Below, in pieces: positions 7,831 through 64,000 of a stretch of 64,000 bases of DNA. Within the stretch, counting starts at the first letter, position 1. The number at the start of each line of letters is the position of its first letter. Origin of the DNA: a virus (taxonomy: Duplodnaviria > Heunggongvirae > Uroviricota > Caudoviricetes); the IMG/VR virus record IMGVR_UViG_2925939204_000001; one strand, written 5' to 3'. Made by a program: the position numbers and the translations under genes. The notes under the pieces were generated by a model. The model ran no database searches. It was not told the origin of the DNA and worked only from the letters and a program-made list of their open reading frames with translations.

Positions 7831-7872
7831 CATTTGTGTTAGATAATTAATATGTATTTTCTAACACAAATG
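7831..7872. promoter_or_regulatory. operator-like 13-bp perfect inverted repeat CATTTGTGTTAGA-N16-TCTAACACAAATG
   Basis: Arms 7831-7843 and 7860-7872; AT-rich spacer TAATTAATATGTATTT; 8 nt upstream of rdgC start. Confidence 0.6.
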
Positions 7873-17493: not shown

Positions 17494-17505
17494 ATGTTAG
17501 AAAAA
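17494..17505 (+). promoter_or_regulatory. operator-like motif ATGTTAGAAAAA
   Basis: Member of dispersed TGTGTTAGAAAA family; ~55 bp upstream of the locus-A promoter. Confidence 0.4.
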
Positions 17506-17557
17506 TAATTTGAATTTTCGAACATAAACAATAAAATAAATCATCAAAAATTTGATG

Positions 17558-51122: not shown

Positions 51123-51134
51123 GTGTTAGAAAAT
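51123..51134 (+). promoter_or_regulatory. operator-like motif TGTGTTAGAAAA with partial inverted partner TTTCTAA
   Basis: ~70 bp upstream of locus-B promoter. Confidence 0.4.
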
Positions 51135-51206
51135 TAATTTGCTGTTTCTAAATCGGAATGTATGATCTGCATCATCGACTGAAGTCATCCATTGCTGAAA
51201 TTTTTA

Positions 51207-51707: not shown

Positions 51708-52414
51708 TGGAAATCTGCATTCTTGAAAAGCCATCAATGACCAGCATTGAGATCGCTGAGCTGGTGGGAAGTCGCCCTGATAACGTTAAACGCACTATTG
51801 AACGCTTGAGTAAATCAGGTGTTATTCCACTTCCTCCAATGGAGGTTTCCGAAAATATCAATAACTTAGGATTTAAAGTTAAAAATTCACACTACGTCTT
51901 CGAAGGCGAGCAAGGCAAGCGTGACAGTATCATTGTCGTTGCGCAGCTTTCTCCCGAATTTACCGCCCGGCTGGTGGACCGCTGGCGCGAACTGGAAGAA
52001 CAAGCACGCCAGCCGTTGACCGAAATAGAGATGATCGCCGCAATGGCTGCAAATGCAGTTCAGCAGCAAAAGCGGCTTCATGTTGTTGAGTCAAAGGTTA
52101 GCCAGGTGGTAGAAACCGTTGAGCAAATCAAGAAAGGCAATATGCCGGAAGGCTACATTGGCTACCGCCAGCTGGCGGCGAAATGTGGCCTGACTGAAGC
52201 CAAATGCCGTAACCTTGTCAACGCTTACCGGATTCCCACCGATACGCATGAGTTTTTAACTCCAGAGGGGGTATTGTCGCGTCGTTCCATCGTGGCCTTA
52301 TCTCCCTTCATGAATGCTTTTAACCGGATGATGTCGGAGGCTGAACACCGAGGAAAACGCTGGTATCACCCCAAAATGGGGCAATTCCAGGTGATCGGTT
52401 GGGGAGGTGAGTGA
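51707..52414 (+). CDS. antirepressor-like protein (235 aa)
   Basis: N-terminal HTH-like SIEIAELVGSRPDNVKRTIERL; shares KKGNMPEGYIGYRQLAAKCGLTEAKCRNLVNAYRIPTDTHEFLTP block with 18049 gene. Confidence 0.55.
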   Translation: MEICILEKPSMTSIEIAELVGSRPDNVKRTIERLSKSGVIPLPPMEVSENINNLGFKVKNSHYVFEGEQGKRDSIIVVAQLSPEFTARLVDRWRELEEQARQPLTEIEMIAAMAANAVQQQKRLHVVESKVSQVVETVEQIKKGNMPEGYIGYRQLAAKCGLTEAKCRNLVNAYRIPTDTHEFLTPEGVLSRRSIVALSPFMNAFNRMMSEAEHRGKRWYHPKMGQFQVIGWGGE

Positions 52415-52611
52415 TGGACATCATGCAGGCGGTAAAAAAAATCAGGGAAGGACAGGCTGAAGTGTGCCGCCGTAAAGCATGGAGTATTGATGTATGGGCC
52501 TGGCCTGATAATTACTCTACTACCGGATGGTTTTGTATTAATGGACTCAAGATCCGGGAAGTTTATTTATCGACGGCTGATATAGTCGGTAATGATTGGA
52601 TCGTGACTTGA
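52411..52611 (+). CDS. DUF2829-like small protein (66 aa; Tad2-like candidate)
   Basis: Pattern ...QAEVCRRKAW...LSTADIVGNDWIVT (R..W near N-terminus, DxxxxDW(I/E)V C-terminus). Confidence 0.45.
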   Translation: MMDIMQAVKKIREGQAEVCRRKAWSIDVWAWPDNYSTTGWFCINGLKIREVYLSTADIVGNDWIVT

Positions 52612-53204: not shown

Positions 53205-56200
53205 GTGAAAATAACATTCTCCATACCCTCTCAACCGTACCGCATAGCGGAATTTTTACGGTTTAGAGGGGGAAATCCTTTGGACAAACTACTTCATTCA
53301 ATCAGTGAAGCCTCCAGCTTAGGCGAACTGATTGAAATTGTTAGTCGGTTGCATAAATTACGAGCTGTTGCGACCTTTGGCGTCAGGAAAGCCGATGGCG
53401 TCAGTATTCAGAAAACACGCCGGGCAGCAAACAATGCCGCAGTAAATCTTCTTAATTCCCTTCCGCCCGGCTTCGATGGGGCGAAATTAACTGACGAACA
53501 ACGTCAGATTCTTGCCGGGTATACCGGTGAAGGCGGCCTGACAGATGGTGAGGGCAGCCAATACGAATACTACACGCCACAGTTTATGGCTGAAGGTATA
53601 TGGGATCTGTTTGCTGACTACGGTATTGATGGCGGGCACGTACTGGAACCATCAGCGGGCACAGGTATTTTCCAGGAGACAAAACGACAGGGCATGATAA
53701 TGACCAGCGCCGAACTGTCTCCGATTTCCGGTCGAATAAACCAGCTTTTGCACCCGGAAGACGATGTGAATATCGGGGCGTTTGAGGCGCTGGCGGCGAA
53801 AGACGCAATGTATGATCACGCTGTTGGTAACGTACCGTTTGGTGAAGGGCGTTCCGGTGTCGCCGGGCTTGATCCGGCATATGCAAACGAGAAGAACGTT
53901 GGCAATTACTTTGTGCTGCGCACGATCGACAAGGTTAAGCCTGGTGGGCTTATCGTATTGGTGGTGCCGAATGGCATGACCGATGGTGCGAAATATAAAA
54001 AATTGCGCGATAAAGTCAGCCGTAAAGCGGAATTTTTGGGCGCGCATCGTATGCCTTCCGGTACGTTCAGTGAATCAGGTACAGATACCGTGGTGGACGT
54101 ATGGGTATTGCGTAAACACCCGGAAGCCTTCCTGGAGATGATCCCCGATACGGATGATTCGACGCTCAAATCGGCAAACGTCCTTTGGGATACCTTCCTC
54201 AAAGGAAAATGGTTTACAACCGAAGGGAAGCGATTTGTTTACGGCGACATGGAACGTACCAGCTTCCGCAATACCCTGGTGGTGAAAAAAGACGGTCGTG
54301 TATCCAATGAGTCGATGAAAACCGCGCTATCTCGTCGCTTTGATAGTCGCATCAATTGGGATTTGCTCGGCGTAACTACTCAGGCATGGCAGGGCGCGAA
54401 AGTGGGCGATAAACGCCTTGTAGGCGGTATCTGGCATGAGTTTGATGGTCTGAAATGGGTTAAGGACACGACAACCAAATCCTCCGCGCTTGATGTAAGT
54501 CGATATGGTGTTTCGACGTTTGGCGATCTGCAGATCGCGTTTCAGTCAACAAATGGCATTCTGGCTTTGTCATGGGACCAGATATCGGCGATCGCGTCTG
54601 ACTACCCATCGGTTGTCAGTGATGAAGTGGCAGCAATGATTCGCTTTGCTGGCAAGCAGCGAGAAAAAGACAGGGAGCGCGTTATGCGCGGTGCACTGAT
54701 AGGTCAGTTGATCAACAAGGCACTTGATTTGCGTAACCTGGGGGTGAACGTTGATGACAAACTGGCAGATGCATCCCGCCTGGCGGCAGCAGAAGTTGCG
54801 AAGTATGGACCACCGCACGCGATTAAGCTGAATGGGCTTGCTGAAGCTGGCGCTAAAAACTGGATGACGTTCACTGGCAATGTGAAACAGGATGGTTCCA
54901 CTTCTGACCTTCTGGCAGGGCGACTTGATGTAACGGATGGTGCTGCCGGTATTGACTTTACGCGTCCTGAACAAGTGATAGCACATCTTTTTAGTGATGT
55001 AGCCCTTAATCCTATAACGCTTGGCGACTTTCGTGAGGCGTTTGCTGGTGAACTGCCAGAGGACGACGACGCGGCCCTTGAATACCTGGCGAAATTTGAT
55101 GATATCGCTATTGATGGGTATGGCTGTCTGCTGCCGATGGACCGCGCCACCAGCGGCGATGTTGCAACCAAAACAGCACTGCTGGTGGGCTGGCGTGATG
55201 CGTCAACAGGTGAGCAGAAAGCGAACTTTGAGCGTCAGTTGGCGAAAATCGAAGAGAAACGCATTTTCACGCCACTAAATAAAGTCACCGTTAATCTGAA
55301 TGCCCGCTGGCTGGATCGCCGCTTGATAAAAGAGTTCCTGGCAGAGCAGGGCTATGACGAGTTTAAGTACACTGAACCTGATCTGAAGGTCGTCGATGGC
55401 ATTCTGGTATCTCCGGACGATTACGAAGGTAAGGACGGTGTATTTACCGGCTACCAGCTACGAACCGTAAACGGCAAAAACGGGAATGAGTTCAAGAAGG
55501 CCAACAATAAAGACGGCTTCCTGAACCAGTTAGAAAACTACCTGAACGGTGTTAAACCGCGTGGGCAGAATGCTAACGAGTACCTGGATAAAATTGCTCA
55601 ACTGGAAGTTAGCTTTAACGACTGGTTACGCACCCACCCGCAGGCGGATCAGATAGCCCGTGACTATAACGACGCATTCAATGGTTTCATTCCGTTCACA
55701 CATTCTGACGCACCGCTAGGCCTGGAAGGGATTAGTGGAAAGCGCATTCCTCTGACTTATCAGAATGAAGAAGTTCGCCGCTTGTCAGAAGATGGGCGTG
55801 GCATCATGGGATTTGGTACCGGGCTGGGTAAAACCACGACCGCGCTTGCGCTTGAGGCGTATAACTTCGAAACAGGTCGCACTAAACGCACGTGTATTGT
55901 TGTTCCGAAGGCGGTTTATCAGAACTGGTATCACGAGGCACAGAGTTTCTACAGTGCTGATGCCTTCGCCAATATGATGTTTATCGGTTTGGATGAAGTT
56001 CGTGATGACGGCGGAAATATTCTTACCGCGCCAGTGCTTGATGAAAATGGCGAACCACGCCTCGACAGTAACGGGCAGCCTCTTACCAGAAATGTTGTGA
56101 AAGAGTCCGCCAGCGCCGTTATCGTTCAGCGCATGAACATGATCCCGTCGTCAAATTGGCGAACGGTCATCATGACAAAAGAACAATTCGCGTCTATCCC

Positions 56201-59200
56201 GCTACGAGAAAAAACCATCGAGGAGAACTCACAGCAAGCTGTCTTTAATGCTGTGGAAATGGGGCGTCTTGACCTGGCCTCCGGTAAACACCGTGATGCG
56301 CAGAAGAAGAACAAGATTAAGGATCAGGCCGCGAATACCGGTACAACGAAGAAGCAGAATATCCCGTACTTTGAGGATATGAACTTCGATAGCGTGATTG
56401 CCGACGAGGGGCATAACTACCGCAACTCCTTTAATGCCGGGCGTGAAGCGGGACAACTGGCATATTTGCCTAACCCGGCAGTATCCAAGATGGCCCGCGA
56501 CATGGCTGTAAAAGCTGCGTACATGATGAAACGCAACAACGGGCGTGGTGTAGTCATGCTGACGGCAACTCCGCTGGTGAACAGTCCGATTGATGCCTTC
56601 AACATGCTGTCTACTGTCATTCCGCAGGAAGAGTGGATGCGCATGGGTATTGTTACGCCGGATGATTTCGTTCGCGTGTTCGGCAAAACAGCCACAGTTC
56701 AGGTTCAGAAAATTTCCGGTGAGGTGGAAGAGAAGCAGGGGCTGGTGGGCTTCCAGAACCTTGATGGTCTGCGTGGTATTTTCCACCGTTGGACCACTCT
56801 GAAGACTGCCGCAGATGTCGGAGCGACGGTTAAAATTCCCGATATCATCGAGAACACCTTGCAGATCCCGATGACAGGGGAGCAGGAGGCTGCTTATGAA
56901 GAGCTTCGTAAGCGTGCTCAGGAGTTAAGTCGCAATGATGAGCTGACAGTCGATGAAAACGGGCATATCACTAACGACAAACCGGATGATTTCATCTTCT
57001 CCATCATCCGCGACATGGATAAGGTTGCTATAGATCCGGATCTGTATGCCAGTGCGATTACATTCCAGTTCCCCGTTGAGCTTGCAGACAAGGTAAAAGC
57101 TATTGCTGATGCCCTGCCAAAAGTCGCAGGCGGTAAAGTGGCAGATGATGCAGACGAGGCCGAAGAAGACGGCGCTGGTGGACTGGTCAGTACGCGTACC
57201 AGCAAGGTAGTGAAGACCACCTTTAGTGCACATCCGGCGCATGTTGAAATACGCGCCAGCATTGAACTGGAAGCTGAAATACTGAAGGCCATTGCTGCCG
57301 CCGGGATTGATCTGCAGCAGGTATCACACCCCATCCCACCGAAGTATGCCGCGCTGATCGAAAACCTTCGTGAAGGTCTGAAGAACGGTAAACAAATTGT
57401 CTTCATTGATGAAAAAGCCCAGCACCAGAAGCTGCGCCGTATTATCGCCAGTGCACTGCAAATGCCGGAGCAGGAGATAGGCATTATCAATGCGACGACC
57501 GTTAGCCAAGCTGGCGGCATCAAGCTGAAGAAGGTGAATAAACCGACTGAACCTACTCCGAATAAAAACGGTGAATACAAAGAAGGGGCATGGGAAACCT
57601 ACTACAGCAAACTTGCCCAATATGAGGATTATCTCTCAGCTAAAAATGATGCTGGCCTTGAGGGCATGGAAGGTATTGCCGCCGACTATAACGAAGGTCG
57701 CACGCGCATCATAATCTGTAACAAGAAGGCTGAAGTAGGTATTAACCTGCACATCGGGACAACCGATATCCACCACCTGACACTACCCTGGACACCAGCC
57801 AGTATCGACCAACGAAATGGTCGCGGTGCGCGCGTAGGGTCACCGCAAGAGAAGGTCAATGTTCACTACTATTGTGGCAAAGGCACATTCGATGACTTCC
57901 GTCTGGATACGCTTAAACGTAAGAAAGACTGGATCAAGATGGTGATGACCTCCGACATGTCAGAGATCGCCAATGGTGATGCGGATGATGCTGATGAACG
58001 CGCCATTATGCTGGCGGCAAACCCGGAAGAACGCCGCGCAATCATGGCTCGCCAGGCGCAAGAGCGTGAAGAACGTCTGAAACTGAAAGCACAGCGCGAG
58101 GCCAACAATGCTCTCGATATCTACCTGAAAGCGGCAAACGCCGCCGGAAAAGATATCGGCATGATGGAGACAGAACTGAAAAGCGCGATGGAACAGATAG
58201 AGTATTACCAGCGAAATCTTGACGACCTGATAAAAGCGGGTACGAACAGGAATGGGCAAAAATACGCACTTGAGCAGTTGAGTAGCTACAGAAAACGTGC
58301 GCGGGTGCTGCGGTTTGCGATCACCAGGGCAAAAGACGCGGATACCATAATGAAACGCTCTCGTGGTGATGTGGAGCGCGCTATTAAGTCTGGTGTGCTG
58401 GATATCAGTATCGATGTTATTCAGAACCCACAGGAGTATATGCGCACTGACAAGAATATCCTGTTGCATAAAGGTAGTTATTACCGTGCAGTCATTGATG
58501 ATCGCGAAACAACAGCGATTGTCCGGGTGGAAAAAATTGACGGTGAAAAAGCACAATACCTCTGCCGTATCGCCTGGCTGGATAGAGCAAGTCGTTACGC
58601 TCGAGCACCGGGGTCAATCGTTACATTGCCGTTTGACTCTGTGATTGAAGCGGTAACTTTTGAAGAGGGGGTAGCTGAATCGCGCGCAACGGCTGCGCGA
58701 GGTGTTCAGTGCCACCAGCTATCAACAATACTTACTCGCGATCAGTTCTATGATGCTATTCGCAATGGGGTAATGAATGTTATTGCTGGTAAACCTGGTA
58801 ATGCATGGGGCGGTGGGTCAGCTATTAAATACTGGGCATATCGCACAGATGATGGTCAGATCGCGCTGTCATCGGCCTATGATGGCGTGATAGGCCAAAA
58901 AATCGGGCGAGCATCGGATATAGCACCTGAGCGATGGATATATCCTGATGGCAACGACGAGGCGCTGAAGCGTGAAGTAGCAAAAATACAAGCCAGTGAT
59001 AACCCGCTGAATATCGTGGACGGCGAGGGATTCCTCCAGGCATTGTATGGGTATGATTACATCCAGGGAATGCAGGCATGGGGCGCACAGGCAACGATGG
59101 ATGATGTTGCCCAGGAGTTCGAAAACTGGATGGCTGGGCGTGGTCTGTCAGGTCGTTCGCTTAATAAAGTCACTTCTGAAGATATTCTTAGCTTGTTCCG

Positions 59201-60116
59201 CAAACCGTCCGGAGAAGGTCTGGAATCATTCTGGAGGACCGTGCTGGCATACCGTTTATTCCAGGGCAGGATGAAAGCCTTTAGCAATATCGATGATATT
59301 GAACGGATGTTTAATCAGGTCAAGATCGCGAAAATTAAGGCGAAGATCGAAAAAACACGTTCTGCGCTGGTGGCCTGGCGCGATGCATTGTTTGAGCAAT
59401 ATAAATCACTCAGTGATGCAGATGGATGGGCGGCATTGGAACAGCTGGCGAATAATGGGGTAGATGGAGCTAAACTCGCCATTGTTCAGGCTGATAACCC
59501 CCTGGAATCACCGGCAGCACAGTGGATTAAGGTGGGGGCTGTCATCAATGCATTTGATGAAAAACACATTAGTAAGGACGATTTTGCTGATGCTGTTTCT
59601 GTTAATCGCCTGGTAGAAATGGCTACCCGCCGCGCCCGTGAGTTGAAAGACGGCGACTATGTGAATGAGTTGCCGGATACGCTCAAATCGGCAACGTGGC
59701 AGGACTATGTATCGCTGAAAAACGGCGGGGCCACTGAATCAGAGATCGCGGAAAGGCTTGAGCAGGCTGAAAGCAAAAGAGAAGAGCAGGCGGCAGTGGC
59801 TGAAGCCAGAGCTGATGAAGCGGCGAATGATGACTATATCATTGTGGTTAATGATAAGCCGATTCGCGCTAAGGCGCGTGTTCGCGGGCGCTGGTGGAGC
59901 GTCAGCGAGGACGTTGGCGCGGTTTATCTCATTGCCGACCAACCAGGTTCCTCGACAATACGGAACGCCAAAGACGCGATTAAGAAGATTGGCGGGCGTT
60001 TCTGGAATTTTGAAGCAAACCCGGTTGCTGATGTGAACTTTGACCGTCCTGCATGGATGGTATCTACGCGTTACTCGGTAGATGAACTGCGTAAAATAAT
60101 CGCCGATGCGGCCTAA
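53205..60116 (+). CDS. darB: giant methyltransferase-helicase, DarB-like virion antirestriction protein (2303 aa, GTG start)
   Basis: N-terminal N6-adenine MTase motifs (LEPSAGTGIF, GNVPFG); central SF2 helicase motifs (GFGTGLGKTT, ADEGHNYRN, LTATPLVNSP, QRNGRGARVG); architecture matches P1 DarB as recalled. Confidence 0.8.
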   Translation: MKITFSIPSQPYRIAEFLRFRGGNPLDKLLHSISEASSLGELIEIVSRLHKLRAVATFGVRKADGVSIQKTRRAANNAAVNLLNSLPPGFDGAKLTDEQRQILAGYTGEGGLTDGEGSQYEYYTPQFMAEGIWDLFADYGIDGGHVLEPSAGTGIFQETKRQGMIMTSAELSPISGRINQLLHPEDDVNIGAFEALAAKDAMYDHAVGNVPFGEGRSGVAGLDPAYANEKNVGNYFVLRTIDKVKPGGLIVLVVPNGMTDGAKYKKLRDKVSRKAEFLGAHRMPSGTFSESGTDTVVDVWVLRKHPEAFLEMIPDTDDSTLKSANVLWDTFLKGKWFTTEGKRFVYGDMERTSFRNTLVVKKDGRVSNESMKTALSRRFDSRINWDLLGVTTQAWQGAKVGDKRLVGGIWHEFDGLKWVKDTTTKSSALDVSRYGVSTFGDLQIAFQSTNGILALSWDQISAIASDYPSVVSDEVAAMIRFAGKQREKDRERVMRGALIGQLINKALDLRNLGVNVDDKLADASRLAAAEVAKYGPPHAIKLNGLAEAGAKNWMTFTGNVKQDGSTSDLLAGRLDVTDGAAGIDFTRPEQVIAHLFSDVALNPITLGDFREAFAGELPEDDDAALEYLAKFDDIAIDGYGCLLPMDRATSGDVATKTALLVGWRDASTGEQKANFERQLAKIEEKRIFTPLNKVTVNLNARWLDRRLIKEFLAEQGYDEFKYTEPDLKVVDGILVSPDDYEGKDGVFTGYQLRTVNGKNGNEFKKANNKDGFLNQLENYLNGVKPRGQNANEYLDKIAQLEVSFNDWLRTHPQADQIARDYNDAFNGFIPFTHSDAPLGLEGISGKRIPLTYQNEEVRRLSEDGRGIMGFGTGLGKTTTALALEAYNFETGRTKRTCIVVPKAVYQNWYHEAQSFYSADAFANMMFIGLDEVRDDGGNILTAPVLDENGEPRLDSNGQPLTRNVVKESASAVIVQRMNMIPSSNWRTVIMTKEQFASIPLREKTIEENSQQAVFNAVEMGRLDLASGKHRDAQKKNKIKDQAANTGTTKKQNIPYFEDMNFDSVIADEGHNYRNSFNAGREAGQLAYLPNPAVSKMARDMAVKAAYMMKRNNGRGVVMLTATPLVNSPIDAFNMLSTVIPQEEWMRMGIVTPDDFVRVFGKTATVQVQKISGEVEEKQGLVGFQNLDGLRGIFHRWTTLKTAADVGATVKIPDIIENTLQIPMTGEQEAAYEELRKRAQELSRNDELTVDENGHITNDKPDDFIFSIIRDMDKVAIDPDLYASAITFQFPVELADKVKAIADALPKVAGGKVADDADEAEEDGAGGLVSTRTSKVVKTTFSAHPAHVEIRASIELEAEILKAIAAAGIDLQQVSHPIPPKYAALIENLREGLKNGKQIVFIDEKAQHQKLRRIIASALQMPEQEIGIINATTVSQAGGIKLKKVNKPTEPTPNKNGEYKEGAWETYYSKLAQYEDYLSAKNDAGLEGMEGIAADYNEGRTRIIICNKKAEVGINLHIGTTDIHHLTLPWTPASIDQRNGRGARVGSPQEKVNVHYYCGKGTFDDFRLDTLKRKKDWIKMVMTSDMSEIANGDADDADERAIMLAANPEERRAIMARQAQEREERLKLKAQREANNALDIYLKAANAAGKDIGMMETELKSAMEQIEYYQRNLDDLIKAGTNRNGQKYALEQLSSYRKRARVLRFAITRAKDADTIMKRSRGDVERAIKSGVLDISIDVIQNPQEYMRTDKNILLHKGSYYRAVIDDRETTAIVRVEKIDGEKAQYLCRIAWLDRASRYARAPGSIVTLPFDSVIEAVTFEEGVAESRATAARGVQCHQLSTILTRDQFYDAIRNGVMNVIAGKPGNAWGGGSAIKYWAYRTDDGQIALSSAYDGVIGQKIGRASDIAPERWIYPDGNDEALKREVAKIQASDNPLNIVDGEGFLQALYGYDYIQGMQAWGAQATMDDVAQEFENWMAGRGLSGRSLNKVTSEDILSLFRKPSGEGLESFWRTVLAYRLFQGRMKAFSNIDDIERMFNQVKIAKIKAKIEKTRSALVAWRDALFEQYKSLSDADGWAALEQLANNGVDGAKLAIVQADNPLESPAAQWIKVGAVINAFDEKHISKDDFADAVSVNRLVEMATRRARELKDGDYVNELPDTLKSATWQDYVSLKNGGATESEIAERLEQAESKREEQAAVAEARADEAANDDYIIVVNDKPIRAKARVRGRWWSVSEDVGAVYLIADQPGSSTIRNAKDAIKKIGGRFWNFEANPVADVNFDRPAWMVSTRYSVDELRKIIADAA

Positions 60117-60152
60117 CAGATAAGGAGCGGCCCCAACTGGGGCCGAATTTGA

Positions 60153-60587
60153 ATGACGACATTAATTGACACTGTAAAACAGACGGAATCCTACCTTGAG
60201 GACATTTTGCCGCAGGCGCTCAATGGCAGGAGTGAAGAGGCGTTTCTGGATGCATATCTGAAAGGCATGGTGGAAAGGCTGAAACGAGATCCACAGCTTT
60301 ATCACCTTTATGGGCCGTGGTGGCCTGCGCTTAAAACGTTATTGCTGGAGCGCGGCGACATATCATTTGGACAAGTTGTAGATAGTGATGTGGCAGAGAT
60401 CTACAAAATGAGTCGCCCGGCGCTTACGGTTTTGGCTGGGCATCTGTATTCGAGCGATCGCCTGGAAAATGACGCGGTATACAATCCTGTTCATGCTCTG
60501 GAAGTCGCACCTTATGCCGATGATACAGAGCCATACGTGTACACAAGTTACGACGAGTCTATAGAGAAATATCGAATTATGGGGTAG
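60153..60587 (+). CDS. acidic hypothetical protein (144 aa)
   Basis: ORF directly after darB; D/E-rich. Confidence 0.5.
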   Translation: MTTLIDTVKQTESYLEDILPQALNGRSEEAFLDAYLKGMVERLKRDPQLYHLYGPWWPALKTLLLERGDISFGQVVDSDVAEIYKMSRPALTVLAGHLYSSDRLENDAVYNPVHALEVAPYADDTEPYVYTSYDESIEKYRIMG

Positions 60588-60589
60588 CC

Positions 60590-60850
60590 ATGCGAAAGAA
60601 TCGTAGGTTTACGGTCGAAGACCTAAAGGAATATTCCATATCGAAGGGGTATATCCTTGAGTTCCACCGATACAAGAAGGTTTTTACGCTGCGAAAAGCA
60701 GAAAACCCTGCGAACTGGAGCTGGATATACTTTCCTCACACCGATGATAAGTTGGTAGAACTTGTTGATGATTTAACCTATGAAGGTTGGTTGATCGCAA
60801 TCGACAAGACAATCAAAGAATTATCCGAACAGGATAAAATAACCCTTTAA
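60590..60850 (+). CDS. hypothetical protein (86 aa)
   Basis: 3-nt spacing after upstream gene. Confidence 0.5.
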   Translation: MRKNRRFTVEDLKEYSISKGYILEFHRYKKVFTLRKAENPANWSWIYFPHTDDKLVELVDDLTYEGWLIAIDKTIKELSEQDKITL

Positions 60851-60854
60851 AAAT

Positions 60855-60894
60855 AACAGGTTGGGTAAATGCCATGCGATTTACCCAACCTGTT
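60855..60894. other. perfect 16-bp stem hairpin AACAGGTTGGGTAAAT-N8-ATTTACCCAACCTGTT
   Basis: Directly after stop of 60590 gene; no T-run on plus strand, T-rich on minus. Confidence 0.5.
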
Positions 60895-60986
60895 GATTAA
60901 GGTCACTCTTTACTCTAAAAGCAAATCCGACCTGTTGCATATAGACCATCCTTGAGTAGTATCTCTCTTGTTTTACAAATCTAACG

Positions 60987-61481
60987 TTGTTGTTATTATT
61001 TCGCATATTTACTATCAATGTGTGTGTTAGAAAAATAGCGCGAAAGAGAAGGCGTCGCAGTGAATATTCTGAAACATCCCCACATGCCGCAGCTCTTAGA
61101 GAACTGGAGAAAAACCCAGATCTAATCAAAAGGAACCATGAGCATTACGAGCAGGTTCGCGTCCTGGACTGGATGTATCGCAATATGCGTTATGTGTATG
61201 AGCATACTCACGCCACTCCAAACGGTGGCCTGCGAGGCATAAGGACGGCAATAAAAATGGTGGCAGAGGGCCAAAAGAAGGGATATCCCGATCTTTCTAT
61301 AGACCTTGCTTGTGGGGGATACCACGGAATGCGCATTGAGATGAAACATGGGAGAAATCGCCTGACTCCCGAACAACTCGTCTGGATGACTCGCCTCACA
61401 GAAGCCGGTTACTACTGCTTTGAGGCGCGCAGTGCCGCTGAAGCCATAAAAGCTATCACGGAGTATGTTTGTCTTGATTAA
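60987..61481 (+). CDS. VRR-NUC domain nuclease (start uncertain)
   Basis: EQVRVLDWMYRN...HATPNGGLRG...GYPDLSIDLACGGYHGMRIEMKHGRNRLTPEQLVWM fits VRR-NUC (PD-(D/E)xK) pattern; only TTG 60987 or GTG 61020 in frame upstream, no SD, operator-like motif overlaps the 5' end. Confidence 0.55.
   Translation: MLLLFRIFTINVCVRKIARKRRRRSEYSETSPHAAALRELEKNPDLIKRNHEHYEQVRVLDWMYRNMRYVYEHTHATPNGGLRGIRTAIKMVAEGQKKGYPDLSIDLACGGYHGMRIEMKHGRNRLTPEQLVWMTRLTEAGYYCFEARSAAEAIKAITEYVCLD
61023..61035 (+). promoter_or_regulatory. operator-like motif TGTGTTAGAAAAA
   Basis: With partial inverted partner TCTAAC at 60981. Confidence 0.4.
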
Positions 61482-61495
61482 ACGGAGAAATCGTT

Positions 61496-61696
61496 TTGCG
61501 TTTACTTAACGTGGCAGAACTTATCCCTGCAGGAACTAATGCTATCGCTCGTCGTCGCTCATGGCAGCAGGCTCTATGTATTGAGATCTCGAAACGTATC
61601 AATGGAAGTTTTGAAGCTCGCAATATTGTTACTGGCGATAAGGTTCACATAACCCCGGAAAGTGCAAGCGCTGATGATTGGGAGTTTGTACATTGA
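61496..61696 (+). CDS. DUF2829-like small protein (66 aa; Tad2-like candidate)
   Basis: ...AIARRRSWQQ...ITPESASADDWEFVH. Confidence 0.45.
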   Translation: MRLLNVAELIPAGTNAIARRRSWQQALCIEISKRINGSFEARNIVTGDKVHITPESASADDWEFVH

Positions 61697-61992
61697 GCAA
61701 AAAATATTATGTGAGTCTGGCGTTCGCTGACGATGCGGGGAGGACGCGGAGTATCACGTTGAGCACACCGGTTAAGGCTGTGACAGCACCGTTAATCCGT
61801 GAAGCTCTCAGAGAGCTGGAATTGGGGGAAAACTCGGCACTGTTGTCGGTTAGTTGGTTCGGGAAAATGTCAGAGAAACAATACGTGGATGGAGTTACCC
61901 CAATAACAGTAATGAGGCTACTTTCATTGCTGCAATGGGCCATCGTACCTGTATTTATCGCGTATCTTATTTATCAGGCTGCAACACAGTAA
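61678..61992 (+). CDS. small tail-anchored membrane protein (start possibly TTG 61693)
   Basis: C-terminal TM helix VMRLLSLLQWAIVPVFIAYLIYQ; GGGAG SD before TTG at 61693. Confidence 0.5.
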   Translation: MGVCTLSKKYYVSLAFADDAGRTRSITLSTPVKAVTAPLIREALRELELGENSALLSVSWFGKMSEKQYVDGVTPITVMRLLSLLQWAIVPVFIAYLIYQAATQ

Positions 61993-61999
61993 TTGCATA

Positions 62000-62030
62000 A
62001 AAACCCGCCAATTAGCGGGTTTTTTGTTTA
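62000..62030 (+). terminator. rho-independent terminator (AAACCCGC-CAATTA-GCGGGTTT + TTTTGTTT)
   Basis: Perfect 8-bp stem with T-run right after stop. Confidence 0.7.
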
Positions 62031-62066
62031 TTGCATCTTCCGATACTGTCATCAAACTAATAAAAT

Positions 62067-62077
62067 ATGTTAGAAAA
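62067..62077 (+). promoter_or_regulatory. operator-like motif ATGTTAGAAAA
   Basis: ~30 nt upstream of 62106 gene. Confidence 0.4.
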
Positions 62078-62105
62078 CTAATTTAACAAAGTAACGGGAA
62101 TAGCA

Positions 62106-63314
62106 ATGAGTCAACACACTGATACTTCTAATCTGGAAATTATCTCGACAGCAATTGAAACGCTGCGCACACAAATCGCTCTTATACAGAAACGGAATCC
62201 GGGTGATGACCTGTCAAAGCGACTGCACGAGAGTGTCATTGCCACTACAGATAACCTGGTGGCGGAAATCAACAAGCTGCTTGATGATGGGGCAGTTGAT
62301 TACAATAAGCTGGTGGATCAGTTTGAGGAATACCAACAAGCCGTTAATGATGGCTTGATCCGTTTTTCACAAGTCACAGGCGTATCAGCGACAGTTGAAA
62401 GCCTGGGTGATGCAGTTAATCAATTTGCCGCGAATATGCGTAATGAGATCGGCAATCTGGAAGCGCGTCTTGAACAGGCAAATACACTGCGTAAATCTGC
62501 CGAAGCCGATTTGAACCGTTACAAAAAAGACTATCCGCCCAGCCTGACAAAGCGGCTGGATGTTGCGGAGAAGGATAACCGCACGCTGAAAAGAGAGCGC
62601 CGGGAACTAAAAGAGCGTTTAACCAAGCTCAATCAGAAATGCATTGATTATCAAGGCGAAGGCGTCACACTGCGTAAAAAGTTGGCTACAGCGCAGAGCA
62701 TTATCGAAACATTAAAGCGAGAGTGCTCACAGCTTGGTCACGATCTGAACCGTGCTTGTGGCATGGGACAAAGACCAGAGACATTTCCACTTATGTATGA
62801 TGGAAGGGATGCCATTGCCTACATCCATGAGTATCCACACGGCCTGGTTGCGGAAACTGGGCAGCGTGGCGAAGCACTGCTGACGGCTAATTACCATCAA
62901 CAAATCAGAACCAATCGCCTGTTAACGATGGATGTGATCCCATCGGTATGGGGAACGCCGCTTTACTATCGCCTGCCGGGCTTCGAAAAGGACTGGAATA
63001 CCGACATAGACGAATGTCTCGCAGATAAAATTATGGCGTACCTGGAGACGGATTTTCCGCGCTTATATCGCCGGATTATGGACTCTAAGGATGCGCCAAT
63101 CGATGAATTAAAAATGCGTCCGGAGACGCTGGAGGCAATCAAGCAGACGGAGTTTGATACTGTATTCAGTGTGGCCTGCATTCCAAGCTGTTTCCATGAA
63201 AGCATCCCGTTCATGCAAGGAGATCGTCGTCAGGAAATCATTGACGCTTGCCGGGTATGGGCGAACGAATGGGATAAGAAGAATGGGGGTGTAGAAGATC
63301 TTTACGGGAAATAA
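62106..63314 (+). CDS. hypothetical protein with N-terminal coiled coil and C-terminal globular domain (402 aa)
   Basis: Operator-like motif in its upstream region; no motif recognised. Confidence 0.55.
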   Translation: MSQHTDTSNLEIISTAIETLRTQIALIQKRNPGDDLSKRLHESVIATTDNLVAEINKLLDDGAVDYNKLVDQFEEYQQAVNDGLIRFSQVTGVSATVESLGDAVNQFAANMRNEIGNLEARLEQANTLRKSAEADLNRYKKDYPPSLTKRLDVAEKDNRTLKRERRELKERLTKLNQKCIDYQGEGVTLRKKLATAQSIIETLKRECSQLGHDLNRACGMGQRPETFPLMYDGRDAIAYIHEYPHGLVAETGQRGEALLTANYHQQIRTNRLLTMDVIPSVWGTPLYYRLPGFEKDWNTDIDECLADKIMAYLETDFPRLYRRIMDSKDAPIDELKMRPETLEAIKQTEFDTVFSVACIPSCFHESIPFMQGDRRQEIIDACRVWANEWDKKNGGVEDLYGK

Positions 63315-63315
63315 T

Positions 63316-63350
63316 ATGTTAGAAATCTAAAATCACAATTCGAATGTATT
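63316..63350 (+). promoter_or_regulatory. operator-like motif ATGTTAGAAA adjacent to late-promoter-like AAATCACA-N7-TGTATT
   Basis: Same juxtaposition as at 19501-19528. Confidence 0.4.
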
Positions 63351-63386
63351 GATTGTGAAGGTGACTTAACATAGAATTTTCCTTGC

Positions 63387-63458
63387 TGGTGGGCGGTACC
63401 CACGTTTCGCTTGCTGGGCTTGATAGTCACTTATTGGTTATTGTTCGCCCACCAGCAT
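63387..63458. other. 12-bp inverted repeat TGCTGGTGGGCG-N48-CGCCCACCAGCA
   Basis: Perfect arms enclosing a 48-nt segment. Confidence 0.5.
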
Positions 63459-63471
63459 TTAACAAATTAAA

Positions 63472-63482
63472 GTGTTAGAAAA
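63472..63482 (+). promoter_or_regulatory. operator-like motif GTGTTAGAAAA
   Basis: Second motif copy ~155 bp after the one at 63316. Confidence 0.4.
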
Positions 63483-64000
63483 GTATAGTAACGCAAGAGC
63501 ACGCTTTGGCACCGTGCAGGCCAAAGTTCAGCAGGTTTAGTGCGGAAAGTGGTTTCAGAGAGAGCACTTTGCGGAGTAAACGACAATACATGTTGAGCCA
63601 CGGAAGGTCTTTTTAAGGTGTTCATTGATGATGGTCCGGCAGAGAGTAACGGTACATGCTGCATCTAATCATCAATGCACATCTTCAACATTAAGGAGGC
63701 ATAGGGATTTTTGTGGCGGTTACCTTTTGCCCTGAGTCTCCTTAATGTTGCGGTAATGCACCTATGCGGATGTGGCCTTGCATTGTGTCTTGAAAGAATG
63801 GGGTAAGGCCGGGGATATCCCCAGGGGGAGGCACCCCCGCTGCAACGAACAGCCACAGACGGCAGTCGAGTGATGGGAACGTGCAAAGACTTTAAACCTC
63901 GTTATGGCTGGCGTGGCAAACGCGACAACCGAGACAGAGCGGTGACGGGCGGAGAGAGTGCCGCATCAAGAAAGAAGCCGACTTGTGATCCCTTTCAGCG

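Follow-up and report, generated by a model that had tools for sequence, protein, structure and literature searches.

Genes and regulatory sites behind darB in a D6-like, P1-family phage-plasmid: a probable junction of two conserved transcription units

Gene content and distribution of the block

The DNA considered here is a stretch of 64,000 nucleotides (nt) from a tailed virus (Caudoviricetes; IMG/VR record IMGVR_UViG_2925939204_000001), referred to below as the window, and the subject is a block of five short genes that follows darB within it. The five open reading frames (ORFs) lie, as the initial annotation of this DNA had placed them, at 60153-60587, 60590-60850, 60987/61020-61481, 61496-61696 and 61693-61992, all on the + strand. 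Over positions 59900-63400 the window is 99.2% identical at the nucleotide level to Escherichia phage D6 (MF356679 / NC_050154), a plasmid prophage belonging to the P1 family of phage-plasmids. In the D6 record, darB, a ulx-like gene, orf13, a pmgM-like gene, orf11, a pmgR-like gene and a pmgS-like gene (D6_15 to D6_9) follow each other in an order identical to that of the window; the five genes are already annotated in D6, and both the region and the phage family to which it belongs are known. Comparison with D6, P1 and further relatives suggests that the block is probably the junction of two conserved transcription units in a D6-like, P1-family phage-plasmid, rather than one island. The upstream unit (unit A) would be the 3'-terminal part of the late Dar anti-restriction operon, which comprises a late-promoter-like site at 53209, darB, ulx and orf13, whereas the downstream unit (unit B) would be a separate operon controlled by the prophage repressor, comprising pmgM, orf11 and the pmgR-like gene and stopping at a terminator (61999-62030).

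Phage-plasmids of this type are common in E. coli, Salmonella and Shigella. With identities of 72-99.5%, the 2-kb block is present in 125 PLSDB plasmids, which come from these hosts and from a few further genera, and 75 of 5,426 complete E. coli genomes include plasmids that match a 201-base stretch within it (60860-61060). The closest relative differs from the window at 10 of 2,011 positions. Across 60100-62110, the window and D6 are separated by 17 substitutions, one of which creates a GTG codon at 61020, while three others perfect a hairpin. The order darB-ulx-orf13-pmgM-orf11-pmgR is kept in two distant contigs. A search of all five proteins against NCBIfam gave zero matches, PADLOC returned no meaningful match for any of them, and a scan of 59900-64000 against Rfam yielded sub-threshold hits only, driven by the terminator. 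Where individual relatives have to be told apart, they are designated by L numbers, L001 being D6 itself.

The upstream unit: darB, ulx and orf13

A late-promoter-like site, AAATAACA-N7-TACCCT (53209-53229, +), is located upstream of darB (53280-60116, +). It matches the motif AAAT[CA]ACA-N7-[TC]AnnnT, which occurs at eight sites in the window (19576, 28214, 36050, 40591, 45711, 47159 and 53209 on the + strand, and 53185 on the - strand), against 0.13 expected. The sites other than 53209 precede gene 23, pmgB/sit, R/S, lydA, prt and a CHAP hydrolase gene; the genes behind the motif are those of the capsid, tail/sheath-region, tail-fibre, lysis and portal operons, together with the CHAP hydrolase gene and darB. 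The motif probably represents the late (Lpa-dependent) promoter of the D6 type. The reading frame of darB begins with GTG 53205, and both the D6 annotation and a Shine-Dalgarno (SD) sequence, GAGGGGG, favour TTG 53280 as the start codon; the late-promoter-like site at 53209-53229 also points to TTG 53280 as the real start.

The first gene of the block (60153-60587, +) encodes a protein of 144 amino acids (aa) that is indeed acidic, as initially described (pI 4.56, net charge -11). It is identified as the orthologue of P1 Ulx by its match to phrog_1629, ‘Ulx-like anti-restriction’ (E 2.6e-58), by its 46% identity to P1 Ulx over 138 of the 144 aa (E 3e-43) and by the D6 annotation, and ulx lies immediately downstream of darB in P1, in D6 and in the two distant contigs. 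The Ulx of P1 is located in the virion head and assists in the localisation of DarB (PMC9024508, Table 1). On the basis of homology and gene order, ulx is assigned to the Dar anti-restriction system as an accessory gene and, by analogy with P1, its product to the late virion components. By contrast, the initial annotation had considered ulx to be a repressed accessory gene, with a product that could mimic DNA. The late-promoter-like site upstream and the virion location of P1 Ulx, a kind of finding that the annotation had itself counted against its reading, speak against repression; as for mimicry, the family matches are to Ulx-like proteins only, and a net charge of -11 was judged modest for a mimic of the Ocr/ArdA type. 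As in P1, Ulx would be packaged in the head, where it would help DarB to be incorporated.

The ribosome-binding site of ulx appears to be split (60122-60152, +). Its SD sequence (AAGGAG, 60122-60127) is located 25 nt from the ATG, and between the two lie a 7-bp GC hairpin (CGGCCCC-AACT-GGGGCCG, 60128-60145) and a further 7 nt. This SD-hairpin-ATG layout is kept, with compensatory changes in the stem, in L004/L006 and in P1. A split SD site bridged by a hairpin is known from gene 38 of phage T4, and the ulx leader resembles it in that the SD sequence and the ATG are held apart by a stable 7-bp hairpin, the stem of which appears to covary; unlike the T4 structure, however, the darB-ulx hairpin could alternatively be an RNA-processing or stability element. 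If the likeness to T4 holds, ulx would be translated from a split ribosome-binding site, the conserved GC hairpin bringing the SD sequence and the ATG together.

The second gene, orf13 (60590-60850, +; 86 aa), belongs to phrog_6844, a family of unknown function, and has about six relatives only. Its AlphaFold2 (AF2) model (predicted local distance difference test score, pLDDT, of 69.7) gave no informative fold match, only unnamed proteins being returned. The gene occupies the position of lxc (bof) in P1: in both phages darB is followed by ulx and then by a small gene, and the SD-hairpin-ATG layout before ulx is shared, but the third gene here has no detectable similarity to Lxc/Bof. The candidate identification of orf13 as P1 Lxc/Bof was rejected, as no BLAST alignment was obtained and the hhalign probability was 0.2%; position and size do match, and a global alignment with Lxc (z 2.99) provides a weak hint only. 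Beyond this point the two gene orders differ, lxc being followed by mod and res in P1, and orf13 by pmgM in the window.

The hairpin between the two units

Behind orf13, the + strand can form a hairpin with a perfect 16-bp stem and an 8-nt loop (60855-60894; -28.8 kcal/mol, z -7.5). The hairpin is present as initially annotated, but its perfect form was found in no other sequence, and it has no U-tract, the next letters on the + strand being GATTAAGG, so that it does not qualify as an intrinsic terminator. All relatives retain the stem, at -16 to -26 kcal/mol; one of its pairs is compensatory, and the G-U pairs of the relatives’ hairpin work in + strand RNA only. In the proposed architecture this hairpin would close unit A and, because it lacks a U-tract, it is more likely to be a 3'-end stabiliser or a leaky terminator than a strong terminator.

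In the relatives, the stem carries an internal mismatch of 2 nt, and the perfect form differs from D6 at 60887, 60888 and 60890. A 41-mer of the perfect stem is unmatched in PLSDB, and in the 5,426 complete E. coli genomes the sequence closest to 60860-61060 (98.0% identical) has exactly four differences from the window, at 60887, 60888, 60890 and 61021. The clustered changes that perfect the stem look like the outcome of quasi-palindrome correction by template switching.

Promoters and an operator-like site before pmgM

Upstream of the third gene, pmgM, a sigma-70 promoter with an extended -10 element is predicted at 60972-60999 (+; TTTACA-16-TGtTATTAT, 10/12 matches, TG present), and transcription from it would be expected to start near 61006. 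The -10 block, TTGTTATTAT, is conserved even in L005 and L006, in which coding is impossible at this point. A second pair of conserved blocks, TTGCAT-16-TAGTAT (60935-60962, +), is a possible upstream promoter; both blocks are invariant in five diverged sequences, whereas the spacer varies, and no further copy of the element occurs in the window. The conserved sequence TTGAGTAGTAT upstream of pmgM has one exact copy only and is not enriched as a repeat.

A further feature of this region is a site at 61023-61041 (+), composed of a TGTGTTAGAAA core and a tail rich in A/T, the latter degenerate in this instance; letters 61023-61035 read TGTGTTAGAAAAA. The window has the core, TGTTAGAAA, nine times in exact form, where 0.63 copies would be expected and 300 simulations gave at most three; the extended consensus is T-R-TGTTAGAAAA-n-TAA-w-w-T. 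When the window and the rest of D6 are considered together, copies are found about 20 nt upstream of the D6 c1 gene, upstream of ref, near cre, between ppp and pdcB, upstream of icd/ant, hrdC and repL, and before pmgM and pmgS, with two more after pmgS. Some cores form inverted pairs about 21 bp apart (7837/7858, 17495/17516 and 51124); these pairs, at 7837-7866 (before hrdC), 17495-17524 (in an unassigned intergenic region) and 51124-51153 (before icd/ant), are similar to the bivalent C1 operators known from P1. Nine of ten aligned sequences, down to 72% DNA identity, keep the 11-nt core at pmgM unchanged, whereas its flanks diverge; in the tenth sequence, L012, a deletion shortens the A-run of the operator by 1 nt. 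The same core precedes pmgM in a distant relative, the 88-kb metagenomic element L016, and in L017 an inverted copy with one mismatch stands before the gene. In every relative examined the site lies on or beside the start of the nuclease gene, with the pmgM start within about 35 nt of it in every lineage, and together with its copy number this bears out the initial description of the motif as operator-like. An exact-pattern scan of one genome per species returned no copy of the pmgM operator region, and a full-text literature search for the motif, which did not extend to the D6 and P1 genome papers, found nothing relevant.

In the P1 record, C1 operators are located upstream of c1 and near cre, and further ones are known as Op82 (before pmgL-pmgM), Op83 (after pmgM) and Op86a/b (OpmgRa/b), which control pmgR and pmgS. 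The site described here shares with them the character of an asymmetric element, about 17 bp long, that recurs singly or in inverted pairs at numerous regulatory regions, that of the repressor’s own gene among them, and the homologous genes of P1, pmgL-pmgM (Op82/O26) and pmgR-pmgS (Op86a/b), likewise lie behind prophage-repressor sites. The likeness does not extend to the letters, TGTTAGAAAAnTAAwwT here versus ATTGCTCTAATAAATTT in P1, the site having about 8/17 matches to the P1 consensus, mainly in the A/T-rich 3' half. The arrangements also differ: the P1 operators lie over promoter hexamers, whereas the site here adjoins a start codon, and the P1 genes belong to two separate operons, whereas pmgM, orf11 and pmgR would form one unit beside darB here. 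The C1 proteins of D6 and P1 are distant homologues (21% identity, E 2e-8), and these observations fit a D6 site of the same kind as the P1 C1 operator with a different specificity. From its distribution and by analogy with P1, the motif may be considered a D6-type C1 operator. The extended -10 promoter (60972-60999) would then fire into this operator, which spans about +16 to +35. With C1 on the operator, unit B would be silent in the plasmid prophage, and induction would lead to its expression, as the analogy with P1 suggests.

The pmgM nuclease and its start codon

The pmgM-like ORF (60987-61481, +), in which conserved coding begins at 61041, encodes a clear VRR-NUC nuclease, probably of the Holliday-junction-resolvase type, and the profile searches sustain the initial assignment. 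The protein scores 27.0 bits against Pfam PF08774 (PD-(D/E)XK fold), above the gathering score of 23.8, with positions 10-115 of 116 covered, and it matches psNUC of Psychrobacter (PDB 4QBL) over the whole nuclease core (E 7e-14). The catalytic motifs are in register, GYPDL and RIEMK here corresponding to GYPDL and RIEIK in psNUC, the second motif being of the form hGhRIEhK. Stand-alone VRR-NUC proteins are dimeric Holliday-junction resolvases, and psNUC, stNUC and saNUC cut four-way junctions (PMC4103454). In contrast to psNUC, PmgM has about 35-40 extra residues at its N-terminus, consisting of a basic patch and SPHAxAL..L.KNPDL, an extension common to P1-family PmgM proteins only. It is 57% identical to P1 PmgM over 136 aa, but the P1 protein starts at an ordinary ATG and differs in its N-terminal 37 aa, and pmgL is absent from the block. 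P1 lacking pmgM forms normal plaques and keeps its antirestriction activity (PMC9024508, section 3.2). The pmgM ORF is intact in all ten relatives compared. Its ratio of non-synonymous to synonymous substitution rates (dN/dS) is 0.02-0.03 within the D6 clade, the members of which lack the ATG (8-13 synonymous changes to 1 non-synonymous), and 0.04-0.09 against more distant relatives.

The start of this gene is less clear. The first in-frame ATG (61173) is M63 of the 164-codon ORF and falls within the first core helix, and no SD sequence precedes any of the in-frame starts (TTG 60987/60990, GTG 61020); both points had been made in the initial annotation, which went on to take GTG 61020 as the only plausible start, overlapped by the operator. 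The motif at 61023-61035 does stand at this GTG, but the codon is not the start used by the family. It arises from a G-to-T change at 61021, the codon being GGG in D6 and in six fetched relatives, and it was found in no other sequence searched; its 41-mer matches 0 PLSDB plasmids, and the GGG version 82. In the D6 clade (L001, L007, L010, L011 and L013), which has GGG at 61020-61022, the canonical start is TTG only, at -33 or at -33/-36, inside the predicted -10 element; the window resembles this clade, with the addition of GTG at 61020. L012 also resembles it, but the deletion in the operator A-run brings a TAG into the pmgM frame. This TAG (NZ_CP027309.1; equivalent to 61031-61035) would abolish proteins started upstream of the A-run, but not those started at or after 61035, and the deletion may be a homopolymer sequencing error. 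In L005 and L006, in-frame stops lie upstream and an ATG stands directly 3' of the operator core (TGTGTTAGAAATTTG-ATG-CGA), and the distant L016 has a similar arrangement (TGTTAGAAAAATC-ATG-CGA). L004 has an ATG 15 nt upstream of the operator, and the distant L017 has an ordinary SD sequence and an ATG right after the inverted operator-like site.

The relatives’ PmgM proteins start with M-R (M-Q in L006) and a basic patch. Because this M-R aligns with the GCG-CGA of the window at 61038, an ATG located within the 17-bp operator (61038-61040) was most probably the ancestral start of pmgM; the D6 clade now has GCG there. The strong purifying selection on the gene argues that pmgM is nevertheless translated in the D6 clade despite the missing ATG. 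Candidate starts are TTG 60990 (reached from the upstream promoter or by read-through), a near-cognate codon such as ATA 61035 and, in this element, the GTG. A frameshift into pmgM from a strong SD sequence (AAAGAGAAGG) located 7 nt before GTG 61060 in the +1 frame was rejected, because homology to P1 PmgM in frame 0 starts at 61071, no slippery sequence is present in 61063-61071 and this GTG is absent from L004.

Annotation pipelines give five different starts for pmgM, with lengths of 225, 297, 309, 474 and 492 nt; the short versions, which begin at internal ATGs, lose part of the nuclease core, including the first core helix. In D6 the nuclease is annotated from TTG 60987. TTG is also the start codon of orf11 and of the pmgR-like gene, as well as the only canonical codon of pmgM in the D6 clade, and ATG is used by the neighbouring genes ulx, orf13 and pmgS. 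The TTG and GTG candidates, together with the missing SD sequence, suggest a deliberately low protein output from unit B.

orf11 and the DUF2829/Tad2 question

The fourth gene, orf11 (61496-61696, +; 66 aa), starts with TTG, with an SD sequence (GGAG) 8 nt upstream. Its relatives are found in D6-like elements only, with about seven distant 66-aa proteins in addition among 1.84 billion representatives, and in relatives the gene always lies between pmgM and pmgR. The structural model (pLDDT 83.6) is a small beta-rich domain. The protein had initially been described as DUF2829-like, but it fails the thresholds of the family: Pfam gives zero hits even at E 10, so that the threshold of PF11195 is not reached, and a PDB profile search found nothing significant. 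The best of the 50 PDB fold matches listed, among which there is no Tad2, is SH3/Tudor-like and insignificant (E 0.087). What likeness there is consists of length (66 aa against a 73-position domain), a shared pattern, G-x5-RR-x2-W ... A-x-DW-E, and a weak top fold match in BFVD to a 66-aa DUF2829 protein (E 0.015, template modelling score, TM-score, of 0.36). In the orf11 alignment, weak Tad2-like Pfam hits occur in 3 of 11 sequences, all below threshold, the Tad2-like model being the only family to hit more than one sequence. The best of these hits is to D6_17 (E 0.053, 14.5 bits against a cut-off of 25), which is another protein encoded in the window and does not count among the relatives of orf11, and hhalign gives a probability of 40% over 30 residues between orf11 and the D6_17 family. 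Identification of orf11 as Tad2 was rejected, since Pfam, the PDB profile search, Foldseek against PDB and BFVD, and hhalign all remained below significance; orf11 is likewise not related to P1 PmgN. At best, orf11 may be distantly DUF2829/Tad2-like, a weakly supported label from sequence and model comparison that should be considered a lead rather than a finding. D6_17 itself (D6 orf17; 52411-52611, +; 66 aa) has a full-length, sub-threshold match to Tad2-like/DUF2829 and has G-x5-RR-x2-W ... DW in common with orf11.

The pmgR-like gene, the terminator and the region beyond

The last gene of the block (61693-61992, +) encodes a 99-aa PmgR-like protein; its TTG start overlaps the orf11 stop (ATTGA), and its SD sequence is GGGAG. 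It matches phrog_9115, is annotated in D6 as similar to pmgR, and is 31% identical to P1 PmgR over 61 aa (pairwise E 3e-6), a weak similarity confined to the N-terminal two thirds. A C-terminal hydrophobic segment (residues 76-94, Kyte-Doolittle 1.99) is present as initially reported, and the L005 protein retains a hydrophobic tail of diverged sequence. The architecture thus departs from that of P1 PmgR, which has 72 aa and no membrane segment, versus 99 aa and a C-terminal hydrophobic helix here. In P1, pmgR is an essential morphogenesis gene, needed for head completion/head-tail joining (PMC9024508; PMC10695390). The block ends, as had been proposed, in a strong intrinsic terminator (61999-62030, +), with a 10-bp GC-rich stem (61999-62024) followed by the T-run TTTTTTGTTT.

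The next copy of the operator (62066-62084, +) stands before pmgS (62106-63314), and more copies lie at 63317 and 63473. These two fall in the stretch downstream of pmgS (63315-63760), which is rich in signals and has no notable ORF or Rfam match. Also present there are a AAATCACA box (63330), two inverted repeats of 21 nt (63612-63750) and, at 63384-63457, a long stem whose outer arms of 12 nt pair perfectly (-33.8 kcal/mol, z -4.4). In D6 a tRNA region comes next, for which this stretch may serve as the leader.

Alternative explanations

Several observations weigh against the division into a late unit and a repressed one, as set out above. The promoters, the operator and the late expression are all derived from the sequence and from comparison with P1; the operator lies downstream of the predicted transcription start, rather than over the -10 or -35 element; its 3' tail is degenerate at the pmgM copy; and transcription from about 61006 would leave TTG 60990, the sole canonical start of the D6 clade, untranscribed. 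Since TTG 60990 falls outside this transcript, its use would imply another promoter (60935-60962) or read-through from unit A, the alternative being non-canonical initiation. The initial annotation had instead viewed the block as one tightly repressed anti-defence island, with an acidic DNA mimic, an anti-defence nuclease and a DUF2829/Tad2 sponge. It is correct in that ulx is part of the Dar anti-restriction system, and the operator does indicate repression of three genes; the BFVD match of orf11 to a DUF2829 protein, the weak Tad2-like hits in its alignment, D6_17 among them, and the 40% hhalign probability against the D6_17 family could also be cited in its favour. However, the hairpin, the promoter and the operator split the block in two, Ulx has only a modest charge and, as part of the virion, a known function in localising DarB (PMC9024508), orf11 has neither a Pfam hit nor a Tad2 among the 50 PDB matches listed, and PADLOC gave nothing meaningful for any of the five proteins. 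Moreover, P1 without pmgM shows no plaque or antirestriction defect, and P1 pmgR is essential for morphogenesis (PMC9024508). A single island is therefore unlikely.

Two other interpretations concern the operator-like site and the gene that follows it. The repeated element TGTTAGAAA(A)nTAAwwT might be a promoter element, or an activator site of early or middle genes, rather than a repressor operator: at most copies its 3' part is a -10-like hexamer (TAAAAT, TAATTT or TATAGT), most single copies are oriented like the downstream gene, and the layout of a box followed by a -10 resembles that of the late-promoter motif. This interpretation is quite improbable, because the pmgM copy lacks a -10-like tail and yet its core is the most conserved intergenic stretch, the inverted pairs about 21 bp apart are typical of operators, the site in L017 is inverted relative to its gene, and copies stand at c1 and cre, where C1 operators are experimentally known in P1, as well as before pmgM and pmgS; overlap with promoter hexamers is, in any case, also a property of the P1 operators. 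The missing start codon could, in turn, be a sign of pseudogenisation, pmgM of the D6 clade being a decaying, untranslated gene. The change from the ancestral ATG to GCG in all D6-clade sequences, the five starts given by the pipelines (225 to 492 nt) and the upstream deletion in L012 would be consistent with decay, but the very low dN/dS (8-13 synonymous changes to 1 non-synonymous) and an ORF that is intact in ten relatives, catalytic motifs included, make it very improbable indeed. The preferred reading thus remains that of two units, the second of them under a D6-type C1 operator. A broader proposal would make pmgM-orf11-pmgR an early counter-defence and DNA-processing module, in which orf11 and D6_17 would be minimal DUF2829/Tad2 sponges for defence signalling nucleotides, orf13 an Lxc/Bof co-repressor of the D6-type C1 diverged beyond recognition, and the nuclease start a non-canonical one inside the operator; taken as a whole, this proposal is unlikely.

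Implications for P1- and D6-type phage-plasmids

These results leave the picture of phage anti-defence unchanged. What retains interest is the loss of the ancestral pmgM start codon in a strongly conserved gene, and the roles of orf11 and orf13. The pmgM puzzle, once solved, would provide a clear small-scale example of initiation that is non-canonical or very weak, possibly a means of limiting a potentially toxic enzyme. The routine mis-annotation of the nuclease gene from internal ATGs is a practical point for the annotation of P1/D6-type phage-plasmids. Finally, the D6-type operator and the late-promoter motif would make it possible to sort the genes of these elements into early, repressed and late sets from sequence.

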